Assembly (NCBI GenBank): GCA_949502025.1
Contig: CATBCG010000046.1
Location: 1 to 26,793 of the forward strand
Length of the DNA: 26,793 nucleotides
From: an uncultured Lachnospiraceae bacterium
GTDB lineage: Bacteria > Bacillota > Clostridia > Lachnospirales > Lachnospiraceae
Direction of reading: 5' to 3'
Below, piece after piece: positions 221 through 21,030 of this stretch. Under the pieces are notes generated by a model. That model was not told where the DNA came from and searched no databases. It was given only the letters and a program-made list of their open reading frames with translations. Numbering within the stretch: the first letter of the stretch is position 1; each line of letters begins with the position of its first letter. The position numbers and the translations under genes were made by a program.

Positions 221-352
221 GAAAAATGCACTATTGTGGTATCTTGTGCTTAAAATCCAATTTAACTGTATTATAACACAAAGTCTCAAAAAAGCAAAGC
301 TTTTTTCAAAAACTTTGTGAAGTAAAAAAAATATCAAGGGGTGAAAACGTCA

Positions 353-3300
353 ATGGAAAAAAACAGAATACGTCCGGTAAAAGCTGGCAACGGCGTAAGA
401 ATGAGTTATTCCAGACAAAAAGAAGTCCTGGAAATGCCCAACCTCATTGAAGTCCAGAAAAACTCCTACGAATGGTTTTTGCGGGAGGGACTCAAGGAGG
501 TTTTTGACGACATTTCCCCAATCGAAGACTACAGCGGGCATTTGAGCCTGGAGTTTGTCGATTTCGTATTGTGCGAGGACGATGTGAAGTATTCGATTGA
601 GGAATGTAAGGAGAGGGACGCGACCTTCGCAGCCCCACTCAAGGTCAAGGTCAGGCTTTACAACAAAGAAAATGACGAAATCAGCGAGCATGATATTTTC
701 ATGGGAGACCTGCCGCTCATGACGGAGACGGGTACGTTTGTGATCAATGGGGCAGAGCGTGTCATTGTAAGTCAGTTAGTACGTTCCCCTGGTATTTATT
801 ATGCTATCAGTCATGACAAGATCGGAAAGCGGCTGTTTTCTTCTACCGTGATTCCAAATCGCGGCGCATGGCTGGAGTACGAAACGGATTCCAACGATAT
901 TTTTTATGTACGGGTAGACCGGAACCGTAAGGTGCCGATTACCGTCTTACTTCGTGCGCTTGGAATCGGGACAAACAACGAAATTCTGGAGATGTTCGGA
1001 GAAGAGCCGAAGATCTTAGCCAGCATTCAGAAGGATACATCAGATAACTACCAGGATGGTCTCCTGGAATTATATAAAAAGCTCCGTCCAGGTGAGCCGC
1101 TTGCAGTAGAGAGCGCAAAGTCCCTGATCGAGAGTATGTTTTTTGATCCGCGCCGCTATGATCTGGCAAAGGTGGGTCGTTACAAATTCAACAAAAAGCT
1201 GGCTTTCCGCAACAGGATTGTCGGATTTCCGTTAGCAGAGGATGTCATTGATACCAATACCGGGGAAATTTTAGCAGAAAAAGGAACCATAGTGACGGAA
1301 GAGCTGGCAAATCAGATCCAATATTTGGCAGTACCGTTTGTCTGGGTACAGGCAGAGGAGCGCAACGTCAAAGTTCTTTCCAATATGATGGTGGATCTGA
1401 ACTGTTTTGTAGACGTAGATAAAAAAGAAGTTGGTGTGACGGAGGATGTTTACTATCCGGCGCTGGCAGCCTTAATGGACGCTTATCCGGAGCCGGAGGA
1501 GTTAAAGGCGGCGATTCGCAGAAGCCTTCATGATTTGATTCCAAAGCACATCACCAAAGAAGATATTTTTGCTTCGATCAATTACAATATGCACTTGGAG
1601 TATGGCATCGGTAATTCCGATGATATCGACCATTTGGGTAATCGTCGTATTCGTGCAGTCGGAGAGCTGCTGCAGAACCAGTATCGTATCGGCTTATCCA
1701 GGATGGAGCGTGTGGTACGGGAGAGAATGACGACGCAGGATTTGAGCGGGGTTTCCCCTCAGTCTCTTATCAATATCAAGCCAGTGACGGCAGCGGTAAA
1801 GGAGTTTTTTGGAAGCTCCCAGCTTTCCCAGTTTATGGATCAGCACAACCCGCTTGGCGAGCTGACACACAAGAGACGTCTGTCTGCCTTAGGTCCTGGC
1901 GGTCTTTCCAGAGATCGTGCCGGTTTTGAGGTGCGTGACGTACACTATTCTCATTATGGTCGTATGTGTCCGATTGAGACGCCGGAAGGTCCGAACATCG
2001 GATTGATTAACTCGTTAGCATGTTATGCGCGGATCAACGAATATGGCTTTGTAGAGGCTCCGTATCGGAAGCTTGATCATACTGATCCGTCAAATCCGCG
2101 GGTTACAGACGATGTGGTGTATCTGACAGCAGACGAAGAGGATAAATTTATCGTAGCGCAGGCAAATGAGCCGTTAGATGAAGCGGGTCATTTTATCAAT
2201 AATAACGTTTCCGGACGTTTCCGTGAAGAGACTTCGCAGTTTGAGAAGCGAAAGGTTGATTTGATGGACGTTTCTCCAAAGATGGTCTTTTCTGTAGCGA
2301 CCGCGATGATTCCGTTCCTGGAGAATGACGATGCAAACCGCGCCCTGATGGGTTCCAACATGCAGCGTCAGGCGGTGCCGCTTTTGCTGACCGAATCCGC
2401 TGTAGTAGGTACTGGTATGGAAGGAAAGGCAGCGGTAGACTCCGGTGTCTGCGTATTGGCGAAAAAGGCTGGTACGGTAGAAAGTTCCTGTGCGGATCGG
2501 ATTGTGATCCGTAATGAGGACGGAAGCCGTTCAGATTATAAATTACTGAAATTTGCACGTAGTAACCAGGGGACTTGTATCAATCAGCGTCCGATTGTCA
2601 ACAAAGGAGATCAGGTAGAAGCCGGACAGGTGATTGCAGACGGTCCGTCTACTTCCGGCGGTGAGCTGGGATTAGGGAAAAACCCGTTGATCGGTTTTAT
2701 GACCTGGGAAGGTTATAACTATGAGGATGCCGTTTTATTAAGTGAACGGCTGGTACAAGAAGATGTTTATACGTCTGTTCATATCGAGGAATATGAAGCA
2801 GAAGCCAGAGATACCAAGCTGGGACCGGAGGAGATTACCAGAGATGTGCCGGGCGTTGGCGACGAAGCGCTAAAGGATTTGGACGAGCGTGGAATTATTC
2901 GGATTGGCGCAGAGGTGCGTGCCGGAGATATTCTGGTGGGAAAGGTAACGCCAAAGGGCGAAACCGAGCTGACCGCAGAGGAACGGCTGCTTCGCGCGAT
3001 TTTTGGAGAAAAGGCGAGAGAGGTACGGGATACCTCCCTGCGCGTGCCGCATGGCGAGTACGGAATTATTGTGGATGCCAAGGTCTTTACCAGAGAGAAC
3101 GGCGACGAGCTGTCTCCGGGTGTCAACCAGAGCGTCCGTGTCTATATTGCACAAAAGAGAAAGATCCAGGTGGGCGATAAGATGGCAGGTCGTCACGGAA
3201 ACAAGGGTGTGGTTTCCCGTGTGCTTCCGGTAGAAGATATGCCGTTCCTGCCAAACGGACGTCCGTTGGATATCGTATTAAACCCGTTGGGCGTGCCGTC

Positions 3301-4177
3301 CCGTATGAATATCGGACAGGTTTTGGAAATTCATTTAAGCCTGGCAGCCAGAGTATTAGGGTTTAAGGTAGCGACTCCGGTATTTGACGGAGCGAACGAG
3401 ATTGATATTATGGATACGTTGGAACTTGCAAACGACTATGTAAACACGCCGTTGGAAGAGTTCCAGGGAAAATATAAAGATATCCTGGCGCCGGAGGTTA
3501 TGGAATATCTGGTAGAAAATCAGGATTACCGGAAGGAATGGGAAGGCGTACCGATTGACAGCACCGGAAAAGTACGGCTGCGTGACGGACGTACCGGAGA
3601 ATATTTTGACGGCGCCGTTACGGTCGGTTTTATGCACTACCTAAAACTCCACCATCTGGTAGACGATAAGATTCACGCCCGTTCCACCGGGCCATATGCG
3701 CTTGTTACGCAGCAGCCACTCGGCGGTAAAGCCCAGTTCGGCGGACAGCGTTTCGGCGAGATGGAGGTTTGGGCGTTGGAAGCCTATGGCGCCGCCTATA
3801 CCTTACAGGAGATCCTGACGGTAAAATCCGACGATGTGGTCGGACGTGTCAAAACTTATGAAGCCATTATCAAAGGTGACAACATCACCGATCCAGGAAT
3901 CCCAGAGTCCTTTAAGGTATTATTAAAGGAACTGCAGTCCCTGGCTTTAGACGTTACCGTCCTCGACGAAAACGGAAATGAAGTTCGTATGACCGAAAAC
4001 ATCGACTACGGCGACGAAGATCTGACGCCGTTGATCGAAGGCGACGACGCGTTCCGCTTTGACAACGCTCCAATGGAAGCCGACGGTTTCCGCTCCGGCA
4101 CCGCGGAGGAACTAGAAGACGACTCGGTAATCAGCGGCTTTGAAGAAGAACTGGATGATTTTGATGATTATGAATAA
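353..4177 (+). CDS. rpoB: DNA-directed RNA polymerase beta subunit. The ORF track begins at GTG 341; ATG 353 is better placed relative to the AAGGGG Shine-Dalgarno. It carries a roughly 100-aa acidic C-terminal tail.
   Basis: Full-length beta-subunit hallmarks (rifampicin-cluster sequence [37 protein letters not shown]-like catalytic regions) and an operon position upstream of rpoC. Confidence 0.97.
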
Positions 4178-4197
4178 GAAACATGGAAAATAAAACA

Positions 4198-4545
4198 GGA
4201 AAGAAGTTTGCGGAACTCAAAACAGTACTTGCCCGTATCAGGCACAGCTCTGTTTTCGGGCGCGTCTCTTTGCGACCGAAAACAGAGATTAGGAAAGGTG
4301 TCTGAGAAGGGCAAGTACGGAACTCAAAAAACAGTAAACTTCTGTACTAGGTGCAGCACAATTTTCGGGCGCGTCTCTTTGCGACCGAAAATTGTGCTTA
4401 GGTAAGGCGCCTAGGGAAGAAGTTTGCGGAACTTAAAACAGTACTTGCCCGTATCAGGCACAGCTCTGTTTTCGGGCGCGTCTCTTTGCGACCGAAAATA
4501 GAGATTAGGAAAGGTGTCTGAGAAGGGCAAGTACGGAACTCAAAA
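4198..4545. repeat. Three tandem long imperfect palindromic (hairpin) elements of about 108 nt in the rpoB-rpoC spacer. The outer copies (4198-4329, 4414-4545) are about 98% identical. The middle copy (about 4330-4413) is diverged but keeps an identical 30-nt apex, TTTTCGGGCGCGTCTCTTTGCGACCGAAAA.
   Basis: Direct-repeat boundaries GGAACTCAAAACAGTA at 4211, 4319, 4428 and 4535. The stems CTCTGTTTTCGG/CCGAAAACAGAG and CAGGCAC/GTGTCTG in the outer copies are replaced by AGCACAATTTTCGG/CCGAAAATTGTGCT and TAGGTGC/GCGCCTA in the middle copy, which are compensatory changes. Confidence 0.85.
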
Positions 4546-4563
4546 TAAGAAGGGAGAACCGGG

Positions 4564-7500
4564 ATGTCAGAGACAGGAATAGAAAATGTTCAGGAAATGA
4601 CATACGATGCCATTAAGATTGGTCTGGCTTCGCCAGAGAAAATCAGGGAGTGGTCGCACGGTCAGGTTACAAAGCCAGAAACGATCAACTACAGAACCCT
4701 AAAGCCGGAAAAGGACGGGCTGTATTGTGAAAAGATTTTTGGACCAAACAAGGACTGGGAATGTCATTGCGGAAAATATAAGAAAATCCGTTATAAGGGC
4801 GTTGTCTGTGACCGTTGTGGAGTAGAGGTAACGAAATCTGCCGTCCGTCGTGAGCGGATGGGGCATATTGAGTTGGCTGCCCCGGTATCGCACATCTGGT
4901 ATTTCAAGGGGATACCGAGCCGGATGGGACTGATACTGGATTTATCTCCAAGAGTGCTGGAGAAGGTTCTGTATTTTGCGTCTTATGTTGTATTGGATAA
5001 AGGAGATACTGACCTGCAGTATAAGCAGGTTTTAACCGAAAAGGAATATCATGAGGCTTATGATAAATTCGGCAGCCGTTTTCGTGTCGGCATGGGCGCC
5101 GAGTCGATCATGGAGCTGTTAGAGGCGATCGATCTGGAGGCGGAATCAGCCGAGCTAAAAAAGGCACTGAAAGATTCGAGCGGACAGAAGAGAGCGCGTG
5201 TAATCAAGCGTCTGGAGGTAGTAGAGGCGTTTAGAGAGTCCGGAAACCGTCCGGAATGGATGATTTTAACCGTGATTCCGGTGATTCCGCCGGATTTACG
5301 TCCGATGGTACAGTTGGAAGGTGGACGTTTTGCTACTTCTGATATGAACGACTTGTATCGCCGGATTATCAACCGGAACAACCGTTTGAAGAGACTGTTA
5401 GAGCTGGGCGCGCCGGACATTATTGTGCGGAATGAGAAGCGGATGCTCCAGGAGGCAGTGGATGCCTTGATTGACAACGGGCGCAGAGGGCGTCCGGTCA
5501 CGGGACCTGGCAACCGGGCGTTAAAGTCTCTGTCTGATATGTTAAAGGGAAAACAGGGACGTTTCCGTCAGAACTTGCTTGGAAAGCGTGTCGATTATTC
5601 GGGACGTTCCGTTATCGTAGTCGGACCAGATTTAAAGATTTATCAGTGTGGTCTGCCAAAGGAAATGGCAATTGAGCTGTTTAAGCCATTTGTTATGAAG
5701 GAATTGGTTTCCAGAGGAACCGCGCATAATATCAAATCTGCTAAAAAGATGGTAGAACGGCTGCAATCCGAAGTTTGGGATGTATTAGAGGACGTTATCA
5801 AGGAGCATCCGGTGATGTTAAATCGCGCTCCTACTTTGCATAGACTTGGTATTCAGGCATTTGAGCCGGTGTTGGTAGAAGGAAAGGCGATTCGCCTGCA
5901 CCCATTGGTTTGTACTGCGTTTAACGCGGACTTTGACGGCGACCAGATGGCAGTTCATCTTCCGTTGTCGATGGAGGCACAGGCAGAGTGTCGTTTCTTA
6001 TTGCTTTCTCCAAACAACCTGTTAAAGCCGTCAGACGGCGGTGTGGTAGCCGTGCCGTCTCAGGATATGGTACTGGGAATTTATTATCTGACGCTGCAAA
6101 AGCCAGGTGATAAAGGAGAAGGAAAATATTTTAAAAATGTCAATGAAGCAATTTTGGCTTATGAAAACGGAGATATTACCTTACAGGCTATGATTAAAGT
6201 ACGCTGTACAGGTCGTAACGCTGAGGGAGTACGCGAGAGCCGGACGGTAGAATCCACGTTGGGACGTTTTATTTTCAATGAAAATATTCCGCAGGATATG
6301 GGCTTTGTCGATCGTACCAAGGAGGAAAACTTCCTTAAACCGGAAGTCGATTTCCTGGTAAAAAAGAAGGAGCTGAAAAGCATCCTGGAAAAGTGTATGA
6401 ACGCACATGGCGCAACGAGAACTGCCGAGGTTATGGATGCGATCAAATCTCTGGGTTATAAATATTCTACCCGTGCGGCAATGACGGTTTCGATTTCCGA
6501 TATGACCGTGCCGGAGAAGAAAAAGCAGATTTTATCTGATGCCGAAGCGACGGTAGAAACGATTTCCAGGAACTTCCGCCGTGGATTGATGACAGAAGAA
6601 GAGCGTTATAAGGCGGTTATCGAGACCTGGAAGGAAGCCGACGATGAGATTACGGAAGCGCTGTTGTCCGGTTTGGATAAATACAACAATATTTATATGA
6701 TGGCTCACTCCGGCGCCCGTGGATCTGACAAGCAGATCAAGCAGTTAGCGGGAATGCGTGGATTGATGGCAGATACGTCGGGACGTACCATTGAATTGCC
6801 GATTAAGTCAAACTTCCGTGAAGGCTTAGACGTATTGGAATATTTTATTTCGGCACATGGTGCCAGAAAGGGATTGTCCGATACGGCTTTGCGTACGGCT
6901 GACTCCGGATACCTTACCCGTCGTCTGGTTGACGTTTCTCAGGATTTGATTATCCGGGAAACCGACTGCTGTGAGGAAAAAGACGAGATTCCAGGTATGT
7001 GGATCAAAGGCTTTATGGACGGCAAGGAAGAGATCGAAAGCCTGGAAGAGCGGATTACAGGGCGTTTCTCCTGTGAGGATATCTATGACGACGCAGGTGA
7101 GTTGATTGTAAAGAAAAACCATATGATTACGCCGAAACGCGCGGCAAGGATTGTGGCTCGGAAGGAAATGGTGGAAGCCGGCAATCATGCAAAAGTAAAG
7201 ATCCGTACGGTGCTGACCTGTAAATCGCATATCGGAGTGTGTGCAAAGTGTTATGGTTCCAATATGGCGACCGGACAGCCGGTACAGGTAGGCGAAGCAG
7301 TCGGCATCATTGCGGCGCAGTCTATCGGAGAACCGGGTACTCAGTTGACGATGCGTACGTTCCATACAGGCGGTGTAGCGGGAGACGATATTACACAAGG
7401 TCTTCCTCGTGTCGAGGAGCTTTTTGAGGCTAGAAAGCCAAAGGGACTTGCGATTATTGCAAAATTCGGCGGACGGGTGACAATTAAGGATACCAAAAAG

Positions 7501-8274
7501 AAACGCGAAGTTGTCGTCACAAATGATGAAAGCGGCGAGGCAAAGGCGTATCTGATTCCGTATGGTTCCCGAATTAAGGTACAGGATAACCAGGTAATTG
7601 ATGCGGGCGACGAGCTGACCGAAGGTAGTGTCAATCCGCATGATATATTAAAGATCAAAGGTGTCCGTGCCGTACAGGATTATATGATCCAGGAAGTACA
7701 GCGCGTATACCGGTTACAGGGTGTGGAAATCAATGATAAGCATATTGAAATGATTGTCCGCCAGATGTTAAAGAAGGTACGGATTGAAAATAACGGAGAT
7801 ACGGATTATTTGCCGGGAACTCTGGTAGACGTACTGGAATACGAAGAATTAAACGAGCAGCTTTTGGAGGAGGGCTTTGAGCCGGCAGACGGCAAACAGG
7901 TGATGTTGGGAATTACCAAGGCTTCCCTGGCAACCAACTCCTTCCTTTCTGCCGCTTCCTTCCAGGAGACGACCAAGGTTCTGACAGAGGCTGCCATAAA
8001 AGGAAAGATCGATCCGCTGATTGGCTTAAAGGAAAATGTTATCTTAGGAAAGCTGATTCCGGCTGGAACTGGTATGAAGCATTATCGTTCGATTAAACTT
8101 GACAGCGACAAGCTTGAGGAAGAGGAAATGGAAGAATTGGAGCTGATGGAAATCGAAGAAGAACCAGACGAGGATTTTCTTTCCTTAGAGGAGGAAGAGG
8201 AGCTGGACGCTCTGGATGCCATGGTGGAAACAGCCGCTATGGAAGAAGAGTTCGTTTCTTTGACAGAAGAATAA
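4564..8274 (+). CDS. rpoC: DNA-directed RNA polymerase beta' subunit, with an acidic C-terminal tail
   Basis: N-terminal Zn-finger CHCGKYKK...CDRCGVEV, the NADFDGD catalytic motif, 1236 aa, and the RBS AAGGGAGA. Confidence 0.97.
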
Positions 8275-8350: not shown

Positions 8351-9310
8351 ATGAAGATCGTTGTATTGGAACGAAACAGTGTAGGAACAGATGTGGATAT
8401 TTCCTGCTATGAGAAGCTAGGAGAAGTAACCGTGTATCCGAATACCGTAGCGGCAAACACTGCGGAGAGGGTAAAGGACGCTGATATTATCATTGCCAAT
8501 AAGGCGCCGTTAAACCGGGAAACGCTGGCAGAGGCAGAGCAGGTAAAGCTGATTTGTGAGTTTGCTACCGGATATGACAACATTGATTTGGAATATTGTC
8601 GGGAAAAAGGGATTGCCGTAGCGAATGTGGTGGATTATTCTACAGCGGCAGTTGCCCAGCACACGTTTGCCCTGACTCTTTATCTTTTGGAAAAACTGCG
8701 GCATTACGATGAATATGTAAAATCAGGAGCATATGCAGCGCAGGAACGTTTTTCTAATTTTGATTTGGCTTATACGGAGCTGGAGGGAAAGACCTGGGGA
8801 ATCGTAGGGATGGGACATATCGGGAAGCGGGTGGCAAAAATCGCGGAAGCCTTTGGTTGTCGGATTTTGTTTTATTCTGCTTCTGGGAACAGTACTTGTA
8901 CGAAATATCAGCGGGTAGATCTGGAAACGCTTTGCCGGGAGAGCGACTTTTTATCCCTGCATTGCCCGTTGACGGACAGAACGCATCATTTGATCAATGC
9001 CGACGCGCTACGGCAGATGAAACCGCAGGCAATTTTAATCAATGTAGCGCGCGGCGGAGTCGTTGATACACAGGCGCTTTATCAGGCTCTGACGGAAGGC
9101 TGGATTGCCGGAGCCGGACTGGATGTTTTAGAGCAGGAGCCGATCGCTGGGGGCAATCCGTTAGGAACGATTCAGGACAGCAGCCGTTTGATCATTACGC
9201 CTCATTTGGCATGGGCGAGTACAGAGGCAAGAGAACGAGTAGTGGCTGAGGTGTATCAGAATATTCAGGCATTTTTAGCAGGGGAGAAAAGAAACCTGGT
9301 AAATTTCTAA
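8351..9310 (+). CDS. D-isomer-specific 2-hydroxyacid dehydrogenase (glycerate dehydrogenase/hydroxypyruvate reductase-like), NAD-binding
   Basis: Rossmann motif GIVGMGHIGKRV, and the conserved INVARG and TPHLAW catalytic regions of the 2-Hacid_dh family. RBS AAGGAGA. Confidence 0.9.
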   Translation: MKIVVLERNSVGTDVDISCYEKLGEVTVYPNTVAANTAERVKDADIIIANKAPLNRETLAEAEQVKLICEFATGYDNIDLEYCREKGIAVANVVDYSTAAVAQHTFALTLYLLEKLRHYDEYVKSGAYAAQERFSNFDLAYTELEGKTWGIVGMGHIGKRVAKIAEAFGCRILFYSASGNSTCTKYQRVDLETLCRESDFLSLHCPLTDRTHHLINADALRQMKPQAILINVARGGVVDTQALYQALTEGWIAGAGLDVLEQEPIAGGNPLGTIQDSSRLIITPHLAWASTEARERVVAEVYQNIQAFLAGEKRNLVNF

Positions 9311-9330
9311 TTTTTTCACGTTCTTTTAAC

Positions 9331-9359
9331 TTGTATGCGAAAGGCAAATATGGTAAGAT
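9331..9359 (+). promoter_or_regulatory. Candidate sigma-A promoter for the xpaC-telA pair: TTGTAT, 17 nt, TGg-TAAGAT
   Basis: -35-like and extended -10-like hexamers with 17-bp spacing. No terminator lies between the dehydrogenase and this site. Confidence 0.35.
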
Positions 9360-9437
9360 AGAATCTGTACAGACGGAAAGCGAGAAGCAGCAAGCCGATT
9401 TGTCTGAATTGTTTTATAGCAAAGAAGGGAATCGTAT

Positions 9438-10850
9438 ATGGGAAGGAATGAATTTGCCAATCTGGGAGACGAGATCAAAGACGCCGTGCAGTCGGCTATC
9501 AACAAAGGGGATTTTGCTAAATTAAGGGCAGAAATCGGAGATTCGGTGAATCAGGCGTTTGACGAAATAAAACAGTCGCTTCAGGGAACTTGGAATGACA
9601 GCAATGTAAAGCAGCCAGGAAGCAAACAAAATGAAAATCAGGAAAGACAGAGTGGACAAGCTGGGCAAAACGGACAAGCCGCTCAAAACTACCGGAGAGA
9701 ACCAGCCAGGCAGCCTGGTCAGGCGGCGCGGCAAAACCAGGCGAGGAGAGCCTACTCTCAGGCAGCCCGCCCTGCCGGTACTGCCGGCAGAAGGATGTCC
9801 GACCAGGGAAGAAGCGGCGTACGTTCCGGGACAGAGGTAGAGCGGGTAAGCGGAACGATAGTAAACGCACGGAAGTCAAATCTTCCGGCATTGCCCGTAC
9901 GTCCGGTAGGAAAGGTAGGAGGAATCCTTTTTACGATATTCGGTTCGATTCTGTTAGGCTTAGGGCTGTTGGGTCTGATGCTTTTTACCAGTCTGGGACT
10001 GGTGACGGGAGGCGGGGATTCGCTATATTTTTTGGCAATCTTTTTAGGACTGCCGACAGCCGCTGCAGGAGCGTTGATGTTAAGCGCGGGACGTCTAAAA
10101 GCCAGGCGTCTTTCCCGGATGAACCATTATGTCAAACTGATTGGCACAAAAGGATATTGCGATATCAAGGAGCTGGCTTTAAAAAGCGGGCGTTCCGTTC
10201 GTTATATGATCAAAGATTTAAGACGGATGATTCGGCTTGGGATGTTTCCGGAAGGGCATTTGGACGATAAAAAAACCTGTTTTATGTTAGATAATAAAAC
10301 GCATCAGCTCTATTTGGAAATGATGCAGGCACAGGGAAAGGTGCAGGAGGAAGCGCCGTCCCAGGAGGAAAAACCGGAAGAAACCGAAGAGGATGCAAAA
10401 CAGGCGGCAGCGAGAAAAGTAGTAGAAGAAGGAAACGCTTATATCCAGCAGATCCGCCAGGCAAATGCAGCGATTCGAGGAGAGGAGATTTCGGCAAAAT
10501 TAGACAGGCTCAGTATGATAATGGATAAAATATTCCTACATATCGAAAGGCATCCGGAAGAGGTAGAGGAACTGCATCGGTTTATGGAATATTATCTTCC
10601 GACGACGCTCAAGCTGGTCAATGCGTACCAGGAATTTGACGCCCAGCCGGTACAGGGAGCAAATATCACAACAGCCAAACGGGAAATTGAGGAGACGTTA
10701 GATACGATCAATCAGGCGTTTGAACGGTTGTTTGACAATTTTTATGCAGATGCAGCGATGGATATTTCAACGGATATTGACGTGTTGGAAACGATGCTTG
10801 CACAGGAAGGGCTGACCGGGCATTCTTTTGAGGAAAAGAAAGAAGCGTAA
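9438..10850 (+). CDS. Membrane protein with two TM helices and a C-terminal XpaC-like domain (5-bromo-4-chloroindolyl phosphate hydrolysis protein family), preceded by a Q/R/G-rich N-terminal extension of about 150 aa
   Basis: Two hydrophobic helices (ILFTIFGSILLGLGLLGLMLF and YFLAIFLGLPTAAAGALML), a C-terminal domain I recognise as XpaC-like, and a position immediately upstream of a telA/yaaN homolog, as in Bacillus xpaC-yaaN. Confidence 0.6.
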   Translation: MGRNEFANLGDEIKDAVQSAINKGDFAKLRAEIGDSVNQAFDEIKQSLQGTWNDSNVKQPGSKQNENQERQSGQAGQNGQAAQNYRREPARQPGQAARQNQARRAYSQAARPAGTAGRRMSDQGRSGVRSGTEVERVSGTIVNARKSNLPALPVRPVGKVGGILFTIFGSILLGLGLLGLMLFTSLGLVTGGGDSLYFLAIFLGLPTAAAGALMLSAGRLKARRLSRMNHYVKLIGTKGYCDIKELALKSGRSVRYMIKDLRRMIRLGMFPEGHLDDKKTCFMLDNKTHQLYLEMMQAQGKVQEEAPSQEEKPEETEEDAKQAAARKVVEEGNAYIQQIRQANAAIRGEEISAKLDRLSMIMDKIFLHIERHPEEVEELHRFMEYYLPTTLKLVNAYQEFDAQPVQGANITTAKREIEETLDTINQAFERLFDNFYADAAMDISTDIDVLETMLAQEGLTGHSFEEKKEA

Positions 10851-10927
10851 GGGAACCGGCTATTTTAACAGGATGCAAATGAGAGAGTGGAGAAAATAAC
10901 GGAGAATAGGATGGGAGGAATTTAGAA

Positions 10928-12097
10928 ATGAACGAGGAGATCTTAAACATGGAGCAGGCTGCTCCGACGTTGACGTTTGAGCCATTTGCAGAGGCTGCTC
11001 CAAAGCCGGAGTTGGTTTTTGAGACGCAGCCGATAGAAGAGGCAAAGCAGCCGGAGGTTCCGGCATTTGACGAAAGCAGTCTGACGCAGGAAGAACGTAA
11101 AATGGTAGATGATTTTGCAGCAAAGATCGAGCTGCAAAATTCCAGTCAGATTCTTCAATATGGAGCGGGGGCTCAAAAGAAGATGGCAGATTTTTCCGAG
11201 TCGGCTCTGAAAAATGTACAGACAAAGGATTTGGGAGAAATCGGAAATATGCTTTCCGGAGTAGTTACCGAACTCAAAAGCTTTGATTTGGACGAGGAGG
11301 ATAAGGGATTTTTAGGCTTATTCAAAAAAAGTTCCAACAAAGTAACCGCCATGAAGGCGCGTTATGCCAGAGCAGAATCCAATGTCAACCAGATTTGTAA
11401 AGTGTTAGAGCAGCACCAGGTACAGCTCATGAAAGATATCGCGGTACTGGATAAAATGTATGAACTGAATAAGACTTATTTTAAGGAATTGTCGATGTAT
11501 GTGCTGGCTGGAAAAAAGCGGCTTCATCAGGTAGAGCAGCAGGAGCTTCCGGCTTTGCAGGAAAAAGCCAGACAAAGCGGCTTGGCAGAGGATGCTCAGG
11601 CGGCAAATGATTTGGCAGCTCTTTGCAACCGTTTTGAAAAGAAGCTGCATGACCTGGAGCTGACGCGGATGATTTCGATTCAGATGGCGCCGCAAATTCG
11701 TCTGGTGCAGGGCAACGATATTTCGATGACAGAAAAAATTCAGTCTACGATTGTCAATACGATTCCGCTATGGAAAAGCCAGATGGTGCTGGCACTGGGG
11801 ATTACTCATTCCGGTCAGGCTGCCAGGGCGCAACGTGAAGTGACGGATATGACGAACGAGCTGCTTAAAAAGAACGCGGCAGCCTTGAAAATGGCAACCA
11901 TTGAGACAGCCAAAGAATCCGAGCGTGGCGTAGTAGATATCGAGACCTTAAAGATAACCAACGAATCCCTGATCAGTACCTTGGACGAGGTAATGAGAAT
12001 CCAGCAGGAAGGTCGTCAGAAGAGGCGCGATGCCGAGCAGGAGTTAAGCCGGATCGAAACCGAGCTAAAAGGCAAGCTGCTTAGCTTACGAAATTAA
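10928..12097 (+). CDS. telA: TelA/YaaN-family toxic anion resistance protein
   Basis: 389 aa, with the TelA family signature along its length (SQILQYGAGAQKKMADFSE..., coiled-coil C-terminus). RBS GGGAGG. Confidence 0.88.
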   Translation: MNEEILNMEQAAPTLTFEPFAEAAPKPELVFETQPIEEAKQPEVPAFDESSLTQEERKMVDDFAAKIELQNSSQILQYGAGAQKKMADFSESALKNVQTKDLGEIGNMLSGVVTELKSFDLDEEDKGFLGLFKKSSNKVTAMKARYARAESNVNQICKVLEQHQVQLMKDIAVLDKMYELNKTYFKELSMYVLAGKKRLHQVEQQELPALQEKARQSGLAEDAQAANDLAALCNRFEKKLHDLELTRMISIQMAPQIRLVQGNDISMTEKIQSTIVNTIPLWKSQMVLALGITHSGQAARAQREVTDMTNELLKKNAAALKMATIETAKESERGVVDIETLKITNESLISTLDEVMRIQQEGRQKRRDAEQELSRIETELKGKLLSLRN

Positions 12098-12134
12098 GAT
12101 ATCAAAAATAAAAAAATCACAAAATTAAAAAAGG

Positions 12135-12178
12135 AAGGGGCGACCTGGCAAACAGGCTGCCCCTTAAACTGTCTTTTT
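12135..12178. terminator. Bidirectional rho-independent terminator between the convergent telA (+) and amidase (-) genes
   Basis: Stem AAGGGGC..GCCCCTT with an inner CCTG/CAGG, flanked by A-runs on the 5' side and T-runs on the 3' side. Confidence 0.7.
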
Positions 12179-12185
12179 AAAAGGA

Positions 12186-12980
12186 TTATAACTGTATGAT
12201 GGCAGTATCAAATCCCAGACCCTGTAGGTTGTCAGCGTACTGTCTGGCTTCTGCTAACGTATCAAAGGTGCCGGAGAGTACAGCGTATAAGCCGCCCAAG
12301 GAGATAATCGTAGCAGGACGGTTATACTGCAACAGACGATCGTATTGAGCGGCTGCATTGTCGTATTGGGCAAACAGACCGACTTGCACACGATACGCTG
12401 GGGTTTCCCGTGAGGAGGTCTGCCCGGAGGTACGGACGGAACTACCGGGCGAATCCTCGATTGCTTCTAAAACACCATCTGCAATACCACGGGCAATTTC
12501 TTCAAAACGTTCATCAAATAGCTGATTGTCCTGGTCATTGTTGATAAAGCCTGCTTCTACCAAAATAGCAGGCATCCGGGTACGGCGAAGAACCGTCAGA
12601 TTGGGACGAAGATCGACGCCTAAATTAAGAAATCCAAGATCTTCCAGATTTTCGTTGATATTTTCTCCCATTTCCTCCTTGATCCCCCCGTTGTTGTATA
12701 TCAAGGACTGCACGCCGGAATATCGGTTAGGGGTGACATTGGAGTTGCGGTGAATAGAAAGAAAATAGTCTGCTCCGCTGTTATTGGCAATCCGCACCTT
12801 TTCACTAGGAGTCTGATAGATGTCGTCCGTGCGAGTATAAACAACATCCTGTCCGGCATTTTCTAACATTGCTCCAACTTCTAGCGCCAGCGCAAGGGCA
12901 TCGTCCTTTTCCATTCTGCCTCGGTAGACGGCGCCGCTGTCACGTCCTCCATGACCGGCATCTATTACGATTTTTGCCAT
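12186..12980 (-). CDS. N-acetylmuramoyl-L-alanine amidase (Amidase_3) with a C-terminal SPOR domain and no signal peptide, resembling CwlC
   Basis: N-terminal KIVIDAGHGGRDSGA...SIHRNS amidase_3 motifs and a C-terminal SPOR-like YRVQVGLF...GLYAVLSGTF. Confidence 0.88.
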   Translation of the reverse strand: MAKIVIDAGHGGRDSGAVYRGRMEKDDALALALEVGAMLENAGQDVVYTRTDDIYQTPSEKVRIANNSGADYFLSIHRNSNVTPNRYSGVQSLIYNNGGIKEEMGENINENLEDLGFLNLGVDLRPNLTVLRRTRMPAILVEAGFINNDQDNQLFDERFEEIARGIADGVLEAIEDSPGSSVRTSGQTSSRETPAYRVQVGLFAQYDNAAAQYDRLLQYNRPATIISLGGLYAVLSGTFDTLAEARQYADNLQGLGFDTAIIQL

Positions 12981-13043
12981 TCAAACACTACCTTATAATC
13001 ATAGTTGCTATAATATATGCAGACAAAGGGAGATTGGCGACAA

Positions 13044-13073
13044 CAGCCCGATGGGAAAGTACCCATCGGGCTG
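13044..13073 (-). terminator. Perfect 12-bp hairpin (CAGCCCGATGGG / CCCATCGGGCTG) between the flotillin stop codon and the amidase start codon
   Basis: Read from the sequence. The downstream U-tract is weak, so it may be a partial terminator or a stabiliser. Confidence 0.5.
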
Positions 13074-13092
13074 TATAAAGTTTAGATAACGT

Positions 13093-14502
13093 CTATTTTG
13101 GGTCGTTCTCTTCAAGAGTAGCCGCCGCCATAGCATCGGCTTCCTCTTCTTCTAAGTTTTTCCCAAGAAATTCCGGCAGCTCCATACCTGCTTGACGGAA
13201 CAAGTCGTTTAACGGCGGGATGGATTTCATCATACCAGAAAGGAAATTGGCAGTTGCCGGCGAGCCTTCCTTGCCGCCAAGGGAATCCCAGACGGTTACT
13301 TTGTCGATCTTGATATTCTTGATAGCGTCTACCTGAATCTGCATAAGATCCTGAAGCTTGTCGGCTACCATCAGCTTTACGGCGGCGTTTGGATCTCCGC
13401 CCGCAGCCTTTACCAGCTCGTGCATACCATCTGCCTGCTTTAAAAGCATTTCCTGGATACCACGCGCCTGCGCTTCCATTTTAGAGAAAATCGCATCAGC
13501 CTCACCTTTTGCCAGCCTTCTGGCTACTTCGGCTTCCGCTTCTGCCTGGATTTCCGCTTTTTCCTTTTCAATCTGTGCCTTGACGATGATATCTGCCTGC
13601 TGGGTAGCTCGTTCTAACTGCGCACGGGTTTCTTCTGCCTTTTGCTGTGCCGTATATGCCTCTTCCTGTGCTTTAGCCGCCTGTACCGCTTCTGCAGCAA
13701 CCGCAATACGCAACGCCTCAGCCTCTTTTTCACGACGGGAAGCGTCGGATTGTGCTACTTCGATTTTAGCTTCATTTTCACCCTGAATCGCAGTAGCGTC
13801 AGCCGCCGCTACCTGAATACGCTGGTCGCGTCGGGCATTTGCCTGACCGATTTCACCATCGCGATCCTTTTCTGCCACACTCTTTTTGGCGTCGTTAATC
13901 GCCTTAGCGGCTGCTTCTTTACCAAGCGCCTCTATGTAACCAGACTCGTCGTTGATATCGGTAACGTTGACGTTGATCAGCCGAAGACCGATTTTTTTCA
14001 GTTCGATTTCCACGTTGTTGGAAACGGAAATAAGGAATTTATCTCTATCTGCATTGATTTCTTCAATGTCCATAGTGGCGATAACAAGACGGAGCTGCCC
14101 TAAAATGATATCCTTTGCAAGCTCCTGAATCTCTCCTAGCTGGAGCCCTAACAGACGCTCTGCCGCATTCTGCATGACACCGGTCTCTGTAGAAATACCA
14201 ACGGTAAAACGAGATGGAACATCTACCCGGATATTCTGTTTGGAGAGGGCGTTACGTAAATCCACGTTAATGGAAATCGGAGTAAGATCCAGATACTGGT
14301 AGGATTGTATCACTGGAACAATAAAGGCAGCGCCGCCATGAATACATTTGGCAGAGCGGTTTTCTCCGTTTTTATCGGTTCCTACCTTACCATAAATGAC
14401 CAATACTTTATCGGACGGGCATTTGCGGTAACGAGAGAGAATGGCAATCAGACAGGCAAATAAAACCAGGACGGCGACACAAATAGCAATCAATATTTCC
14501 AT
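13093..14502 (-). CDS. floT: Flotillin-like SPFH/band-7 protein (FloT/YuaG-like) with a long EA-rich coiled coil
   Basis: N-terminal TM segment plus SPFH domain, followed by the characteristic alanine/glutamate-rich flotillin repeats. RBS AAAGGAGAA. Confidence 0.9.
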   Translation of the reverse strand: MEILIAICVAVLVLFACLIAILSRYRKCPSDKVLVIYGKVGTDKNGENRSAKCIHGGAAFIVPVIQSYQYLDLTPISINVDLRNALSKQNIRVDVPSRFTVGISTETGVMQNAAERLLGLQLGEIQELAKDIILGQLRLVIATMDIEEINADRDKFLISVSNNVEIELKKIGLRLINVNVTDINDESGYIEALGKEAAAKAINDAKKSVAEKDRDGEIGQANARRDQRIQVAAADATAIQGENEAKIEVAQSDASRREKEAEALRIAVAAEAVQAAKAQEEAYTAQQKAEETRAQLERATQQADIIVKAQIEKEKAEIQAEAEAEVARRLAKGEADAIFSKMEAQARGIQEMLLKQADGMHELVKAAGGDPNAAVKLMVADKLQDLMQIQVDAIKNIKIDKVTVWDSLGGKEGSPATANFLSGMMKSIPPLNDLFRQAGMELPEFLGKNLEEEEADAMAAATLEENDPK

Positions 14503-14598
14503 AATAGTTTTCTCCTTTTTTAGTAGGTTTGTCAGCAGCTTGAAAAAAGACTGGCTGCTGCAAAAAAGTAGTTATGTAGCGTCTGTAGAAATACACGA

Positions 14599-15240
14599 TT
14601 ACTGCTCCGGCTCCACCAATACGGCATCCCCGCGAACATCGATAATCCGGACACGGCTGCCGGTCGGCAGCGGAACAGAGGAATCCGTGATCGCATCGTA
14701 TTCGTTAAAATGACCGCCAATCGTGATGTTGACTTTTCCATGACCATTTCCCTTGGATGGAACGGTCAGATAAACCGTACCACTATAGCCGAGCGTGGAG
14801 ACGATGGATACGCTGCCGTCGTCTGCCAGCTTGGAAAGCGCGCGGATTAGGAGGGCAACCAGGAACATAAACAAAAAGCCCAACATAATCGCCAAAGCCA
14901 TAGACAGAAACGAGGAAGCAAGTACTCGTGTAAAAGCAAGACCGCTCCAGCCAAAGACACAGAAAAATGCAATAATGCCCTGGAAAGTAAAGAGCCGCAT
15001 TGTCCCAAAATCACCAGGCGCTGTACCATCCGGAGCAAAATCTGTGCTATCTGGTGAAAACGCTCCTCCGTCTGTATCCAGATCCAGACCGGATGTATCG
15101 CTTGGGTTAAAGCTGGAACCATCCTCGCCCCAGCCTAAAAACAACAGTACCATCTGTAAAATCAGAACAAGAGTAGACGGTACGGCGATACAGTAAAGAA
15201 TTTTTTGCAACAGGGAAAGGGATTCCCAAAATACCTGCAT
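14599..15240 (-). CDS. NfeD-like membrane protein (YuaF-like) with a C-terminal OB-fold and an acidic D/S/G-rich linker. The start is probably the internal ATG at 15240 (RBS GGAGGTG) rather than the ORF-track start at 15264.
   Basis: Multi-TM region followed by a VRIIDVRGDAVLVEP beta-barrel tail. It lies directly upstream of flotillin in the same orientation, as in yuaF-floT. Confidence 0.8.
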   Translation of the reverse strand: MQVFWESLSLLQKILYCIAVPSTLVLILQMVLLFLGWGEDGSSFNPSDTSGLDLDTDGGAFSPDSTDFAPDGTAPGDFGTMRLFTFQGIIAFFCVFGWSGLAFTRVLASSFLSMALAIMLGFLFMFLVALLIRALSKLADDGSVSIVSTLGYSGTVYLTVPSKGNGHGKVNITIGGHFNEYDAITDSSVPLPTGSRVRIIDVRGDAVLVEPEQ

Positions 15241-15438
15241 AATGCCACCTCCATTGTTTCGCATTTGTTTGATAGAAAACGTTATAAGGGGAAACTATAA
15301 CGGCTTCTATGATTAAGAATCAGGGAAATTTATCTGTGTAAATTCCGCTTACAATAAGTATACCATAATCTTCAAAAAAGTCAATAAAGCTAATGAGATC
15401 TTAATAAAAAATTTATTGGAAAATTTATAAAAAATGAC

Positions 15439-15467
15439 TTGATTATCTTTGCAAAATCTGGTATACT
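15439..15467 (+). promoter_or_regulatory. Consensus-like sigma-A promoter: TTGATT, 17 nt, TATACT
   Basis: Read from the sequence, about 75 nt upstream of the XRE-family regulator gene. It is divergent from the nfeD-floT operon. Confidence 0.6.
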
Positions 15468-15543
15468 CTCCCTGTAAATCGTATTTACACAAGGCGAAAT
15501 ATGCCTTTGTTACAGATCTACAGATGCGAAAGGAGCGGATAGC

Positions 15544-16107
15544 GTGGGAAGGGCAGAACTAGGAAGACGCCTAAAAGAAGCCAGACTCGCCAGAAGGATG
15601 ACACAGAGCGAGGTAGTGGGGGATTTTATTACCCGTAACATGTTAAGCCAGATTGAAAGTGGCAGCGCCATGCCATCTGTCAAGACGCTGGAATACTTAT
15701 CGAAGAGGCTGGAGATACCATTTGAACAGCTGATGGCAGATGAGGAGAGAGAAGAAACGACGCTGGAGCTGCTGCTTCGTGCAAAAGAGGATTTTAAAAA
15801 AGGGAGATATGAGGAGGTTATCAATCTTTTAGAGCAGGACAATGAAAAAATAACACCTATTTATGATGAGATAGGAGCGATACTGGCACGCTGTTATCTG
15901 CAGTTGGCATTACAGATGAGGGATAAGATGGACGGTAAATGGGCTGTGGAGCATCCAAAAGAGCTGCCAGTGCTGGAACATCGCCTGACCGCCTATGCAA
16001 AAGCAGCCGGACGATATGCCAGCGAAGGAATCTATGCCAGTAAGGAAATCCGAATGGAAGCTCTTGTACTCGAACATTTGAGAGAGGATACGGAACGTTA
16101 CTTATGA
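15544..16107 (+). CDS. XRE-family (Cro/C1-type) helix-turn-helix transcriptional regulator with a C-terminal domain of unknown function. GTG start.
   Basis: HTH signature LKEARLARRMTQSEV...SQIESG...PSVKTLEYLSKRL. RBS AGGAG. Confidence 0.85.
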   Translation: MGRAELGRRLKEARLARRMTQSEVVGDFITRNMLSQIESGSAMPSVKTLEYLSKRLEIPFEQLMADEEREETTLELLLRAKEDFKKGRYEEVINLLEQDNEKITPIYDEIGAILARCYLQLALQMRDKMDGKWAVEHPKELPVLEHRLTAYAKAAGRYASEGIYASKEIRMEALVLEHLREDTERYL

Positions 16108-16149
16108 GACATCTGGAGTTTGATGCTCGTCTTTGCGAACGAATATTTA

Positions 16150-16190
16150 AGGCAGGAAAGCTTTGAAGTGGCTTTCCTGCCTGTTTCATT
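16150..16190. terminator. Bidirectional rho-independent terminator (perfect 12-bp stem AGGCAGGAAAGC / GCTTTCCTGCCT) between the convergent XRE (+) and glycosyltransferase (-) genes
   Basis: Perfect stem read from the sequence, followed by GTTTCATTTT. Confidence 0.75.
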
Positions 16191-16206
16191 TTAAAACGCT
16201 ATCTTT

Positions 16207-16965
16207 TTATTTTTTACGAAAGATTTTCCGCTTAGCACGGATCATAGTAAAGTATCCTACAGCTATGATTCTGCCCAGACGCTGACCGAATATCCGGTTG
16301 ATCTTCTGAATACGTTTGGTTCGTTCTTTTTGTTCCGGGGTATGCCAGGAGGCATGATACCAATGTATGCTGTATGTATTTTGGGTTATTTTCAAACGGT
16401 TGTTCGTAAAACAAAGAGGGGCAAAATATTCAGCGGGAAATATATCGATCCCTTGTATGGACTGATATTTTCCATTGAGCTGCAAGCCATAAGATTTCAG
16501 TAATTCTGTAGTATAAAAGGGAGAAGGTACAATATTTGTCGTACCGTCTTCCTTATAAAAAGAAAGTGAATGGTACAAATCCCGCATCTGTTTTAAAATT
16601 TCATTTCCCGGCTCCGCGCCAAATCCTAAGCCCAGTGCTACGAACATCTGACTTTCAAAGCCCAGAAAAGCTTTACAGTTTAACAAGCTATCCAGGCTTT
16701 TTAACAATTCCACATCTGTGTCCAGATAGATCCCGCCTTCCCGGTAAATAATATCCAAACGGGCATAATCGGGGACGAAAGCCCACATTTTGGCTTCATA
16801 TGCCTGCGCCATATAAGTGCATACGGAAAAATCATAATTAGATTCATTCCATTCTATAATCTCATAATCCGGGCAGAATTTTTTCCAGCTTTCGGCGCAT
16901 GCTTTGTTTTTCTCCGGCATGGGTTTATCGCCAACCCAGAAATAATGTATTTTTTTTGGAATCAT
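16207..16965 (-). CDS. Glycosyltransferase with a DXD sugar-binding motif (GT32-like, Gly_transf_sug family). AT-rich relative to its neighbours.
   Basis: KIHYFWVGDKPMPE...YARLDIIYREGGIYLDTDVE, including the DXD motif. RBS GAGGGAGA. Confidence 0.85.
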   Translation of the reverse strand: MIPKKIHYFWVGDKPMPEKNKACAESWKKFCPDYEIIEWNESNYDFSVCTYMAQAYEAKMWAFVPDYARLDIIYREGGIYLDTDVELLKSLDSLLNCKAFLGFESQMFVALGLGFGAEPGNEILKQMRDLYHSLSFYKEDGTTNIVPSPFYTTELLKSYGLQLNGKYQSIQGIDIFPAEYFAPLCFTNNRLKITQNTYSIHWYHASWHTPEQKERTKRIQKINRIFGQRLGRIIAVGYFTMIRAKRKIFRKK

Positions 16966-16979
16966 ATAAGGGTCTCCCT

Positions 16980-17348
16980 CTAATATCGTATTATTTTTTT
17001 TATGATTTTGCTCAGAACCTGATAGTGGTTGGGAAAAGTAAAAAACAAAATCATTTTTCCAATGCTTTTGATATCTCGTGCGTTTCGCCGGATAAATTTT
17101 TTGTCCTGGATCGTCGTCCCTTCTTGTTCAGACAGTTGACATACCCCTATCATCTGCCGAGCCAGATAACTGGTCAGGATATTGTGCTGGTATCTAGTTA
17201 AGCCAAATCTCCGGTAATAATCCTCTAATTGAAAAAGTATTTTCTTTTTTTGAAAACGACCGAAGGGAATAGACAGGCAGCAAAACTTTTCTGCGTCGCT
17301 ATTCTCTCTGGTACATAAGCCGTCCAAAGGCTTTCTAAAAAATAGCAT
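16980..17348 (-). CDS. Hypothetical 122-aa protein. Its stop codon lies 14 nt upstream of the glycosyltransferase start, and it is AT-rich.
   Basis: Only an ORF whose position suggests coupling to the downstream gene. There is no recognisable domain and no clear RBS. Confidence 0.3.
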   Translation of the reverse strand: MLFFRKPLDGLCTRENSDAEKFCCLSIPFGRFQKKKILFQLEDYYRRFGLTRYQHNILTSYLARQMIGVCQLSEQEGTTIQDKKFIRRNARDIKSIGKMILFFTFPNHYQVLSKIIKKIIRY

Positions 17349-17726: not shown

Positions 17727-17770
17727 CGGATGCAACACTTTTTATAAAATGTTGCATCCGCTGTTCTATG
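17727..17770. repeat. Long palindrome CAGCGGATGCAACA-CTTTTTATAAAA-TGTTGCATCCGCTG in the ORF-free region upstream of csrA. It is copy 1 of a paired motif.
   Basis: A 14-bp perfect stem plus an AT-palindromic loop, read from the sequence. Confidence 0.6.
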
Positions 17771-18062: not shown

Positions 18063-18089
18063 ACTTTTGTAAAAGGAAGGAGGCTTTTC

Positions 18090-20520: not shown

Positions 20521-21030
<510 letters not shown>

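Follow-up and report, generated by a model that had tools for sequence, protein, structure and literature searches.

The boundary between rpoB and rpoC, the genes of the beta and beta' subunits of RNA polymerase, is among the most conserved and tightly spaced gene boundaries of bacteria. The locus described here raises the question of what fills an rpoB-rpoC spacer of 386 nt, and what such an insert may do inside an essential operon. The spacer lies in a window of 26,793 nt (the whole stretch of DNA analysed; contig CATBCG010000046.1 of assembly GCA_949502025.1) from an uncultured Lachnospiraceae bacterium without a close GTDB representative, which is sampled through mouse-gut metagenomes and metagenome-assembled genomes. 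It holds tandem units of a non-coding hairpin repeat, and a diverged copy of the same repeat stands between rpsG and fusA. The repeat family is previously undescribed across the collections searched, namely Rfam, plasmids, phages, GTDB representatives, JGI metagenomes and related spacers. The explanation favoured here, to which a probability of about 0.55 is given, is that of a lineage-restricted family of small (~105-109 nt) hairpin repeats with a role in intercistronic processing or mRNA stability.

Architecture of the rpoB-rpoC insert

The spacer is delimited by open reading frame (ORF) ends at 4177 and 4564, and an earlier reading made from the sequence alone (the sequence-only reading) was right to call it unusually long. 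In 19 Lachnospiraceae loci the corresponding spacer is mostly 11-70 nt, with a median of about 18; the longest among 78 loci compared is at most 269 nt, against 386 nt here, and the closest RpoB relatives (88% identity) have spacers of 19-21 nt without the element. Tandem Repeats Finder places an array at 4211-4545, with a period of 107 and 3.1 copies. The tandem nature of the roughly 3.5 units of ~108 nt proposed earlier is thereby upheld, while the exact layout is a remnant of a B-type unit, then units A, B and A', and a partial unit (Table 1). Both repeated sequences that had drawn attention are present: the identical 30-nt apex, TTTTCGGGCGCGTCTCTTTGCGACCGAAAA, is there in three exact copies, at 4253, 4362 and 4469 (0 expected by chance), and the bounding direct repeat, the 17-nt CGGAACTCAAAACAGTA, is found at 4211, at 4427 with 1 mismatch and, truncated, at 4534.

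All units run head-to-tail on the + strand and measure 105-109 nt, the hairpin accounting for ~95 nt with a GC content of about 46-50%. Folded singly, each unit is predicted to form a single extended hairpin with an energy between -48 and -52 kcal/mol (z -6.5 to -7.5), in agreement with the three-stem hairpin read earlier, and the entire spacer folds at -172 kcal/mol (z -12.8). The unit opens at its 5' end with the single-stranded linker GGAACUCAAAA(AA)CA. An outer stem of 10 bp, a symmetric 3x3 loop (GUA/GAA or GUA/GGA) and a middle stem of 8 bp come next, followed by a 14-bp inner stem whose 5' strand begins with AGC, a purine-rich 8-nt bulge on the 3' side, and a tip in which a G.A mismatch leads into a CGC/GCG stem capped by UCUCUU. 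In unit A this takes the form of the 10-bp outer stem, a GUA/GAA loop, the 8-bp middle stem, an 8-nt 3' bulge, the 14-bp inner stem, G.A and a CGC-loop-GCG apex. The conserved unit ends are single-stranded and asymmetric, with A-rich AAAA(G)ACAG at the 5' side and CGGAACU at the 3' side of the hairpin. The alignment of A with B is free of internal gaps, which argues for a fixed architecture, and its register by MAFFT is that of the covariance model. A' departs from A by two substitutions only (C>U in the linker and C>U in a stem, making a G-C pair into G.U), pointing to a recent duplication.

The last, partial repeat runs into the ribosome-binding region of rpoC, as had been noted. Positions 4534-4563 are predicted to be unpaired but for a weak long-range 6-bp contact, and the rpoC ribosome-binding site is essentially unpaired in the predicted fold of the spacer. 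No promoter or terminator was called on the + strand within the spacer (terminator scan, 3900-4800). An intrinsic terminator or attenuator on the mRNA strand was rejected, the hairpins being followed by CGGAACUCAAAA with no U-tract and none being called in 3900-4800. No ORF runs through the spacer and none is conserved across units; a coding reading, which might be entertained from the 216 nt (72 codons) of A plus B, was likewise rejected, with stops in all frames and allele-dependent ORFs of at most 65 aa. When the arms were compared by short-word BLAST with the window and with all loci, only random matches of 12-13 nt or less came up, so that the stems do not appear to be copied from nearby genes.

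Covariation and the strand under selection

The sequence-only reading had described compensated changes in the inner and middle stems. Aligned with one another, A, A', B and B' show standard pairs in 97.9% of cells, against 25-46% paired in slid-partner controls, and 13/36 pairs are changed on both sides; covariation extends, beyond the original claim, to the outer stem (6/10 pairs, A vs B). When type C and its variant C' from the second locus (see below) are added, 17/36 pairs are changed on both sides with 95.6% of cells paired, 7/10 outer-stem pairs are changed on both sides across types A, B and C, and 0/500 shuffles reach the observed score, statistics that are drawn from five or six phylogenetically non-independent unit types and from a covariance-model alignment biased towards the modelled structure. 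Identity between A' and B is 89% in unpaired columns and 62% in paired ones, conserved and diverged blocks alternating as seven unpaired segments and six diverged arms. What is conserved is the sequence of the loops and the pairing of the stems; the sequence of the stems is not.

The imperfect pairs are distributed unequally between the strands. Across distinct unit types the + strand has 10 G.U sites vs 1 A.C (binomial p about 0.012), its remaining mismatches are all purine-purine, and it folds 8-12 kcal/mol better than the - strand for every unit type. Strain variants behave in the same way: in B' a C-G pair has become U-A with pairing kept, in C' an A-U pair has become G.U and a GxA mismatch G-C (fold -34.1 to -40.0 kcal/mol), and the changes in A', B' and C' all keep or improve the + strand fold. 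The 3x3 non-canonical G.A/N.N/A.G loop is kept in type C, and the G.A of the apex is swapped to A.G. The excess of G.U over A.C, together with the strain substitutions, argues for selection on the fold of the operon mRNA, unlike a strand-neutral DNA palindrome mechanism. As far as sequence comparison can tell, the pattern indicates purifying selection on the RNA fold of the mRNA strand. The claim that a structured RNA or palindromic element family is embedded in the rpoBC mRNA, under selection for structure, gains support from this covariation, from the G.U asymmetry and from the second locus.

A second copy between rpsG and fusA

A covariance model built from the units finds a match over its full length, in the same register, at + strand positions 21025-21142 (52.9 bits, E about 1e-11). 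This type C member begins with AAAAGACAGCA and an outer stem of 10 bp, continues through a GGA/GGA loop and a middle stem of 8 bp, and reaches the inner stem after CAGC; its tip has A.G (G.A in A and B) and CGC-AUCUUUUUA-GCG, and the bulge and the tail GCGGAACU follow. After the tail come AAAAUAGGAGGAG and the TTG start of fusA at 21161, the fusA Shine-Dalgarno sequence lying at 21148-21155. The copy is found in all 17 assemblies examined, L091 and L092 carrying the variant C'. Both loci are intercistronic, both copies are in sense orientation and directly 5' of the downstream Shine-Dalgarno sequence, and the diverged second copy suggests a dispersed family. A copy elsewhere in the genome lacking covariation had been named in advance as the finding that would count against selection on structure; in the copy that was found the stems covary. 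Orientation bias, target preference and copy number are all judged from about 30 kb and two loci.

An improved model run over the whole window with filters off yielded no convincing further member. The R2 match at 17691-17798 (22 bits) was rejected as a generic long hairpin that has neither the CGC-loop-GCG apex nor the CGGAACU tail. The R2 match covers a near-perfect 19-bp hairpin, ACAGCGGATGCAACA... (17723-17764); this hairpin and an inverted copy of its core, GCAACA..TGTTGC (about 18030-18060), bracket the csrA upstream region and could represent an operator or terminator pair.

Strain alleles and distribution

The element is kept in more than 15 independent assemblies of the host species, among which the number of units between rpoB and rpoC is 1, 3 or 4. 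The A-B-A' allele of 386 nt is that of the window and of five further loci (Table 1), L112 having it with a recombinant first unit; L084 carries A-B-A-B (495 nt), L085, L088 and L089 a lone A-type unit (170 nt), and L108 and, in partial form, L086 a lone B' unit (172 nt). The flanks are identical in all alleles, the gutted B remnant at 4194-4210 included. Such shared flanks and remnant imply that A and B units had already diverged in an ancestral array, which linker recombination later trimmed or expanded. Assembly collapse as the source of the lone-A allele was judged unlikely, given three independent assemblies with a linker-C/stem-U combination absent from any unit of the three-unit allele; the lone-B' allele sits in a 36-kb contig, which also argues against collapse. 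The array does leave marks on assemblies: at L081 (1673-1693) the ENA contig breaks off inside it, in Illumina adapter sequence AGATCGGAAGAGCGTCGTGTA, and L109 and L114 have 100-N scaffold gaps within it; breaks and artefacts in assemblies are caused by the repeat.

Outside the lineage, the covariance model found no element in 80 other rpoB-rpoC loci, and an exact search with the apex 22-mer CGGGCGCGTCTCTTTGCGACCG gave 0 matches in GTDB representative genomes, IMG/VR and JGI metagenomes. A degenerate fixed-register pattern that fits A, B, B' and C picked up 24 metagenome loci, all of them dismissed as chance (at most 14 bits by covariance models), and 0 matches in viral contigs; blastn of the spacer against plasmids and phages found nothing. 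In Rfam 15, a search of which had been proposed with the original claim, no family matched the spacer at gathering score, and at E up to 10 just miRNA-precursor and rivX noise of 14-17 bits appeared. The best non-self RpoB score (P0002) was set aside as that of a high-GC organism without the element, and an exact-sequence look-up of the window RpoC returned no record. Conservation in relatives, also part of the original argument, extends over the assemblies of the species; the other rpoB-rpoC spacers examined, 78 in the comparison above, all lack the element. It is restricted to one species-level lineage.

Other long rpoB-rpoC spacers of Clostridia (86-270 nt) are structured but of unrelated sequence, with z of -3 or lower in about 9/15, which fits a general need for structure at this junction; structured inserts appear to arise there repeatedly. 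Structured long spacers are present at L004 (3739-3909), L012 (1035-1142), L023, L037, L058, L066, L073 and L076, and the segment 1060-1115 of L012 resembles an H-type pseudoknot.

Proposed function and alternative explanations

Under the favoured explanation, the copies stand in sense orientation in the gaps of highly expressed operons (rpoB-rpoC and rpsG-fusA) and, to judge from this position inside operons, would be transcribed with the operon mRNA. The A/B array would grow and shrink by recombination between its repeated linkers, producing the alleles of one, three and four units. A long untranslated gap without structure would invite polarity and nuclease attack in an essential operon; the hairpins may compact the insert, so that polarity is avoided and the ribosome-binding site is not occluded. 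An endonuclease (RNase Y-like or RNase III-like) may cut the unstructured GA-containing linker or the long duplex, after which the flanking hairpins would shield both products, the upstream cistron against 3' exonucleases and the fragment downstream against 5' exonuclease, cleavage and protection together partly uncoupling the two cistrons. The ~35-bp interrupted duplex would match the size of an RNase III substrate, and the conserved linker, unstructured, GA-containing and A/U-rich, would have with its strong hairpin the shape of an RNase Y maturation site. What is said here on co-transcription, on cleavage, on mRNA stability and on how the copies spread is inferred. Intercistronic hairpins are known to protect operon segments, for example at malE-malF (PMC5927463), RNase Y favours GA in unstructured AU-rich RNA with downstream structure, which stabilises the cleavage product (PMC11780869), and small bacterial repeats are co-transcribed and change mRNA stability (PMC3184786, PMC3049150).

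As to the origin of the copies, 7-nt direct repeats flank both inserts, AAAATAA at 4187-4193 and 4542-4548 (chance p about 0.09) and AATAGGA at 21029-21035 and 21145-21151 (chance p about 0.07), both lying in A/G-rich sequence and both tested post hoc. Without the insert and one repeat copy, the spacers would be of ordinary length, 31 and 14 nt, and the Shine-Dalgarno sequence would be normally placed. As insertion duplications the repeats are suggestive only, and there is little to indicate mobility. No terminal inverted repeat is shared by the copies, the outer stem differing among A, B and C; the neighbourhood (about 30 kb) has no transposase or recombinase gene, and no empty insertion site was found. 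These points weigh against the favoured explanation, as does the fact that dispersal of the family is judged from n=2 loci within about 30 kb of sampled genome. The proposed function meets objections as well. Strains whose RpoB C-termini are identical differ in unit number (1 to 4), so that dosage cannot be critical, and a tolerated passenger would fit as well. The rpsG-fusA copy has 6-8 non-standard pairs and a z of only -2.5, pointing to weaker constraint there. Finally, a pure stability or insulator role leaves the strong conservation of loop sequence unexplained and would imply a sequence-specific partner, be it a protein, a nuclease or the mobilisation machinery.

Such a partner is central to a more speculative and distinctly unlikely reading, in which the units form a hairpin cassette that is both mobile and functional, with sequence-specific loops, targeting to the site just 5' of a Shine-Dalgarno sequence, a 7-nt duplication and no terminal inverted repeats. 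The host would have co-opted this cassette, via a dedicated partner or nuclease, to set beta:beta' and S7:EF-G ratios; its insertion mechanism would be new and copy number among strains a tuning knob. Should Shine-Dalgarno-proximal targeting and 7-nt duplications hold true genome-wide, they would suggest an undescribed insertion mechanism.

Loops far more conserved than stems are also expected of a dedicated cis-regulatory RNA, in which the apex UCUYUUU, the purine-rich 3' bulge, the 3x3 G.A loop and the GGAAC linker would bind a factor (a ribosomal or RNA polymerase-related protein, or CsrA) or pair with the downstream Shine-Dalgarno sequence, tuning how much rpoC and fusA are translated compared with rpoB and rpsG. 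This alternative is unlikely. Both copies lie directly 5' of the Shine-Dalgarno sequence of a cistron for the gene-expression machinery, and the non-canonical G.A motifs are kept or isosterically swapped in C. Pairing of the pyrimidine apical loop with the Shine-Dalgarno sequence downstream is possible (-9.2 and -6.1 kcal/mol) but non-specific: cross combinations reach -7.6 and -5.9, and loop/Shine-Dalgarno covariation was discarded as evidence since cross pairings score about equal. For CsrA, csrA is present in the window and GGA in every linker, yet the GGA of the bulge is absent in B and C and the context is unlike the usual A(N)GGA motif. A range of 1-4 copies among strains is moreover unusual for a tuned regulator; the element is also confined to one species-level lineage, whose relatives manage with spacers of 14-30 nt, and it matches no Rfam family. 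The strand asymmetry bears on a different proposal, that of a neutral repeat at the DNA level, a tolerated palindromic minisatellite born of slippage or template switching whose arms are kept by palindrome correction and gene conversion. It predicts perfect Watson-Crick arms and no strand bias, whereas 10 G.U vs 1 A.C and purine-purine mismatches are seen, gene conversion cannot yield seven conserved unpaired segments between six diverged arms, and the diverged copy at the second locus retains register and structure. A neutral repeat would account well for lineage specificity, for copy number resembling that of a variable-number tandem repeat (VNTR), for A and A' as near-identical recent duplicates and for an rpsG-fusA copy that is degenerating; on balance it is improbable.

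The opposite strand could also be the active one, the units being terminator-like mobile elements in the manner of SPRITE of which only the non-terminating orientation survives in essential operons, and which could in addition stop antisense transcription. With - strand hairpins 8-12 kcal/mol weaker and burdened with A.C and pyrimidine mismatches, U-runs that are short and interrupted, only small sub-hairpins called on that strand and the gene 3' ends of the region sampled free of copies, this is very improbable, even if - strand tails are U-rich in all five unit types (CUGUUUU(UU)G, and CUGUCUUUU in type C), both copies are in the non-terminating orientation relative to the operon, and there is a likeness to SPRITE in the ~105-109 nt size and in having an A-run at one of the ends (PMC3049150). 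Scarcely credible, lastly, is an array of processed small RNAs or self-cleaving ribozymes, in which monomers of ~107 nt would act in trans like ToxI-type repeats, satellite ribozymes or miRNA-like hairpins. The head-to-tail units with a conserved single-stranded junction would suit such an array, and the sole weak Rfam similarities are to miRNA precursor hairpins; no known ribozyme or small-RNA family appears at E up to 10, however, the one-unit alleles and the single rpsG-fusA copy mean that an array is not required, downstream there are just rpoC and fusA with no toxin or partner gene, and the arms have no matches longer than 12 nt elsewhere in the window.

Features of the locus and neighbouring genes

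Table 1. Coordinates of the repeat units and associated features in the window.
Feature	Position	Strand	Basis
rpoB (RNA polymerase beta subunit), coding sequence	341-4177	+	ORF list; Pfam RNA_pol_Rpb2 domains on identical gene in L106-L114
rpoB-rpoC intercistronic spacer, 386 nt, contains the array	4178-4563	+	ORF ends; identical allele in L106, L107, L110, L111, L113
Left 7-nt flanking direct repeat AAAATAA, candidate target-site duplication	4187-4193	+	Sequence
Remnant of an internally deleted B-type unit (AACAG + GAAAGAAGTTTG, 3' arm of B outer stem)	4194-4210	+	Comparison with unit B
Unit A: linker CGGAACUCAAAACA, then hairpin 4225-4318	4211-4317	+	Fold -52.4 kcal/mol, z -7.5; covariance model 116 bits
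Unit B (hairpin 4334-4427): A-like architecture, three stems all different, paired	4318-4426	+	Fold -48.4 kcal/mol, z -7.4
Unit A' (hairpin 4441-4534)	4427-4533	+	Fold; comparison with A
Terminal partial linker CGGAACUC, right AAAATAA copy (4542-4548), rpoC Shine-Dalgarno AAGGGAG (4550-4556)	4534-4563	+	Sequence, fold
rpoC (RNA polymerase beta' subunit), coding sequence, ATG 4564	4564-8274	+	ORF list; Pfam RNA_pol_Rpb1 domains, equivalent L106 gene
Type C unit within the rpsG-fusA spacer of 130 nt; hairpin 21043-21136, tail GGAACU 21137-21142	21025-21142	+	Covariance model R1; fold -31.7 kcal/mol, z -2.5

In other assemblies the rpoB start is placed at window position 353 (1274 aa). No rplL is found upstream of rpoB, where other strains have glycosyltransferase and VTT-domain genes. 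The first 130 nt of the window are the 3' end of a group II intron (RF00029, domains V/VI; Rfam match 56-127, +, 45.1 bits), which is also present in L110; L106 and L108 have a VTT-domain gene and an intrinsic terminator in its place and are identical to the window from about 133 onward, suggesting a strain-polymorphic intron insertion. The insertion site is just after the terminator and upstream of the rpoB promoter (TTGACA...TAATAT, about 191-220).

Downstream, rpoC and rpsL are not directly adjacent, a gap of ~11.7 kb that encodes, within 8351-19562, a 2-hydroxyacid dehydrogenase, TelA, an amidase/SPOR protein, an SPFH protein, a helix-turn-helix regulator, a glycosyltransferase, csrA (about 18090-18380) and flagellin (18654-19562). 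The rpsL-rpsG spacer (20388-20559) is long for this junction at 172 nt and not significantly structured (z -1.0); it might hold an S7 autoregulatory site. A 19-nt tandem repeat, GCAAAGTAAATTTGCTTAG, of 3.5 copies (23270-23335) spans the fusA stop codon, and the 199-nt fusA-tuf spacer is significantly structured (z -4.4). After tuf, at the expected position of the S10 operon, lies an N6-adenine methyltransferase/Eco57I-like gene (24991-26187), and many assemblies stop 0.5-1.5 kb past it, beside two small ORFs resembling sigma-70 region 4.

Significance and comparison with known systems

The rpoB-rpoC junction tolerates, in this species, 140–465 nt of extra, strongly folded RNA in an amount that differs between strains, and the copy-number alleles constitute a natural experiment on intercistronic structure and the stoichiometry of essential subunits. 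The clean signature of conserved loops, covarying stems and strand-specific wobble separates constraint at the RNA level from constraint at the DNA level. In practical terms the array offers a VNTR strain marker and is a recurrent source of breaks in metagenome assemblies. Small interspersed repeats are, to our knowledge, little described in gut Lachnospiraceae, and the element adds a repeat family from this poorly characterised group.

Several familiar classes of repeat were considered and rejected. A CRISPR array is contradicted by the segments between the 17-nt repeats, which are homologous hairpins with an identical apex, and by the lack of cas genes; integron attC sites were ruled out by sequence inspection, and ToxI-like repeats of type III toxin-antitoxin systems by the downstream genes, rpoC and fusA. 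With bacterial MITEs (miniature inverted-repeat transposable elements), which are <200 bp and rarely up to ~400 bp, the unit shares a length below 200 bp, a long RNA stem-loop and the absence of a transposase gene within it; membership fails on the conserved terminal inverted repeats, the outer stem differing completely among A, B and C.

The bcr1 repeats of the Bacillus cereus group (group A repeats, about 155 bp) resemble the element in being non-coding, interspersed, transcribed and specific to one lineage of Firmicutes, with short flanking direct repeats and compensatory changes that keep the RNA fold while stability varies by copy (PMC3184786). Compensatory changes in an interspersed repeat are present here too, and transcription would follow from the position in operons. 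The bcr1 fold is a two-stem cruciform-like structure with 5-bp direct repeats, confined to the B. cereus group and without known sequence similarity to the element, whereas the latter has one three-stem hairpin of ~95 nt, 7-nt flanking repeats, a position directly 5' of the Shine-Dalgarno sequence in operons and tandem arrays. The pneumococcal repeats RUP (107 bp), SPRITE (~105 bp) and BOX are similar in size, tight RNA fold, operon co-transcription and restriction to one species group, BOX being modular and length-variable and SPRITE having an AAAA terminus and a long stem (PMC3049150). RUP and BOX differ in their conserved terminal inverted repeats and known target-site duplications, and SPRITE in its AAAA/TTTT pair and long T-tract; in the element the conserved ends are asymmetric and the stems covary, GC is about 47-50%, and the sense strand lacks a T-tract. 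Its sense strand has A-runs at both ends and its antisense strand only short interrupted U-runs, and membership of SPRITE was rejected.

Correia repeats of Neisseria and ERIC of enterobacteria are likewise hairpin repeats co-transcribed in operons, the former creating RNase III sites and the latter RNase E sites, with orientation-dependent effects on the stability of flanking mRNA (PMC3049150, PMC3184786). They have conserved terminal inverted repeats, TA or other defined target-site duplications, hundreds of copies and experimentally demonstrated cleavage; the two loci of the element, by comparison, have candidate duplications and putative cleavage sites. REP/BIME, as at malE-malF of E. coli, is also an intercistronic hairpin repeat, often clustered, and by keeping 3' exonucleases off the upstream cistron its hairpin determines the stoichiometry of the operon (PMC5927463, PMC3184786). 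REP sequences, however, are GC-rich palindromes of ~35 nt that alternate in orientation within BIMEs and are linked to the RAYT (TnpA_REP) transposase; with a hairpin of ~95 nt, 46-50% GC and all units head-to-tail on the + strand, membership was rejected. The RNase Y sites of B. subtilis cggR-gapA and glnRA share a cleavage-prone, unstructured, GA-containing and AU-rich stretch with a stabilising hairpin (PMC11780869); these sites are unique, non-repeated and mapped by cleavage, and the likeness is one of layout only. On the best reading of these comparisons, the element would be closest, in function and evolution, to the small interspersed hairpin repeats exemplified by bcr1, RUP/SPRITE/BOX, Correia/ERIC and REP/BIME, while being a member of none of them.

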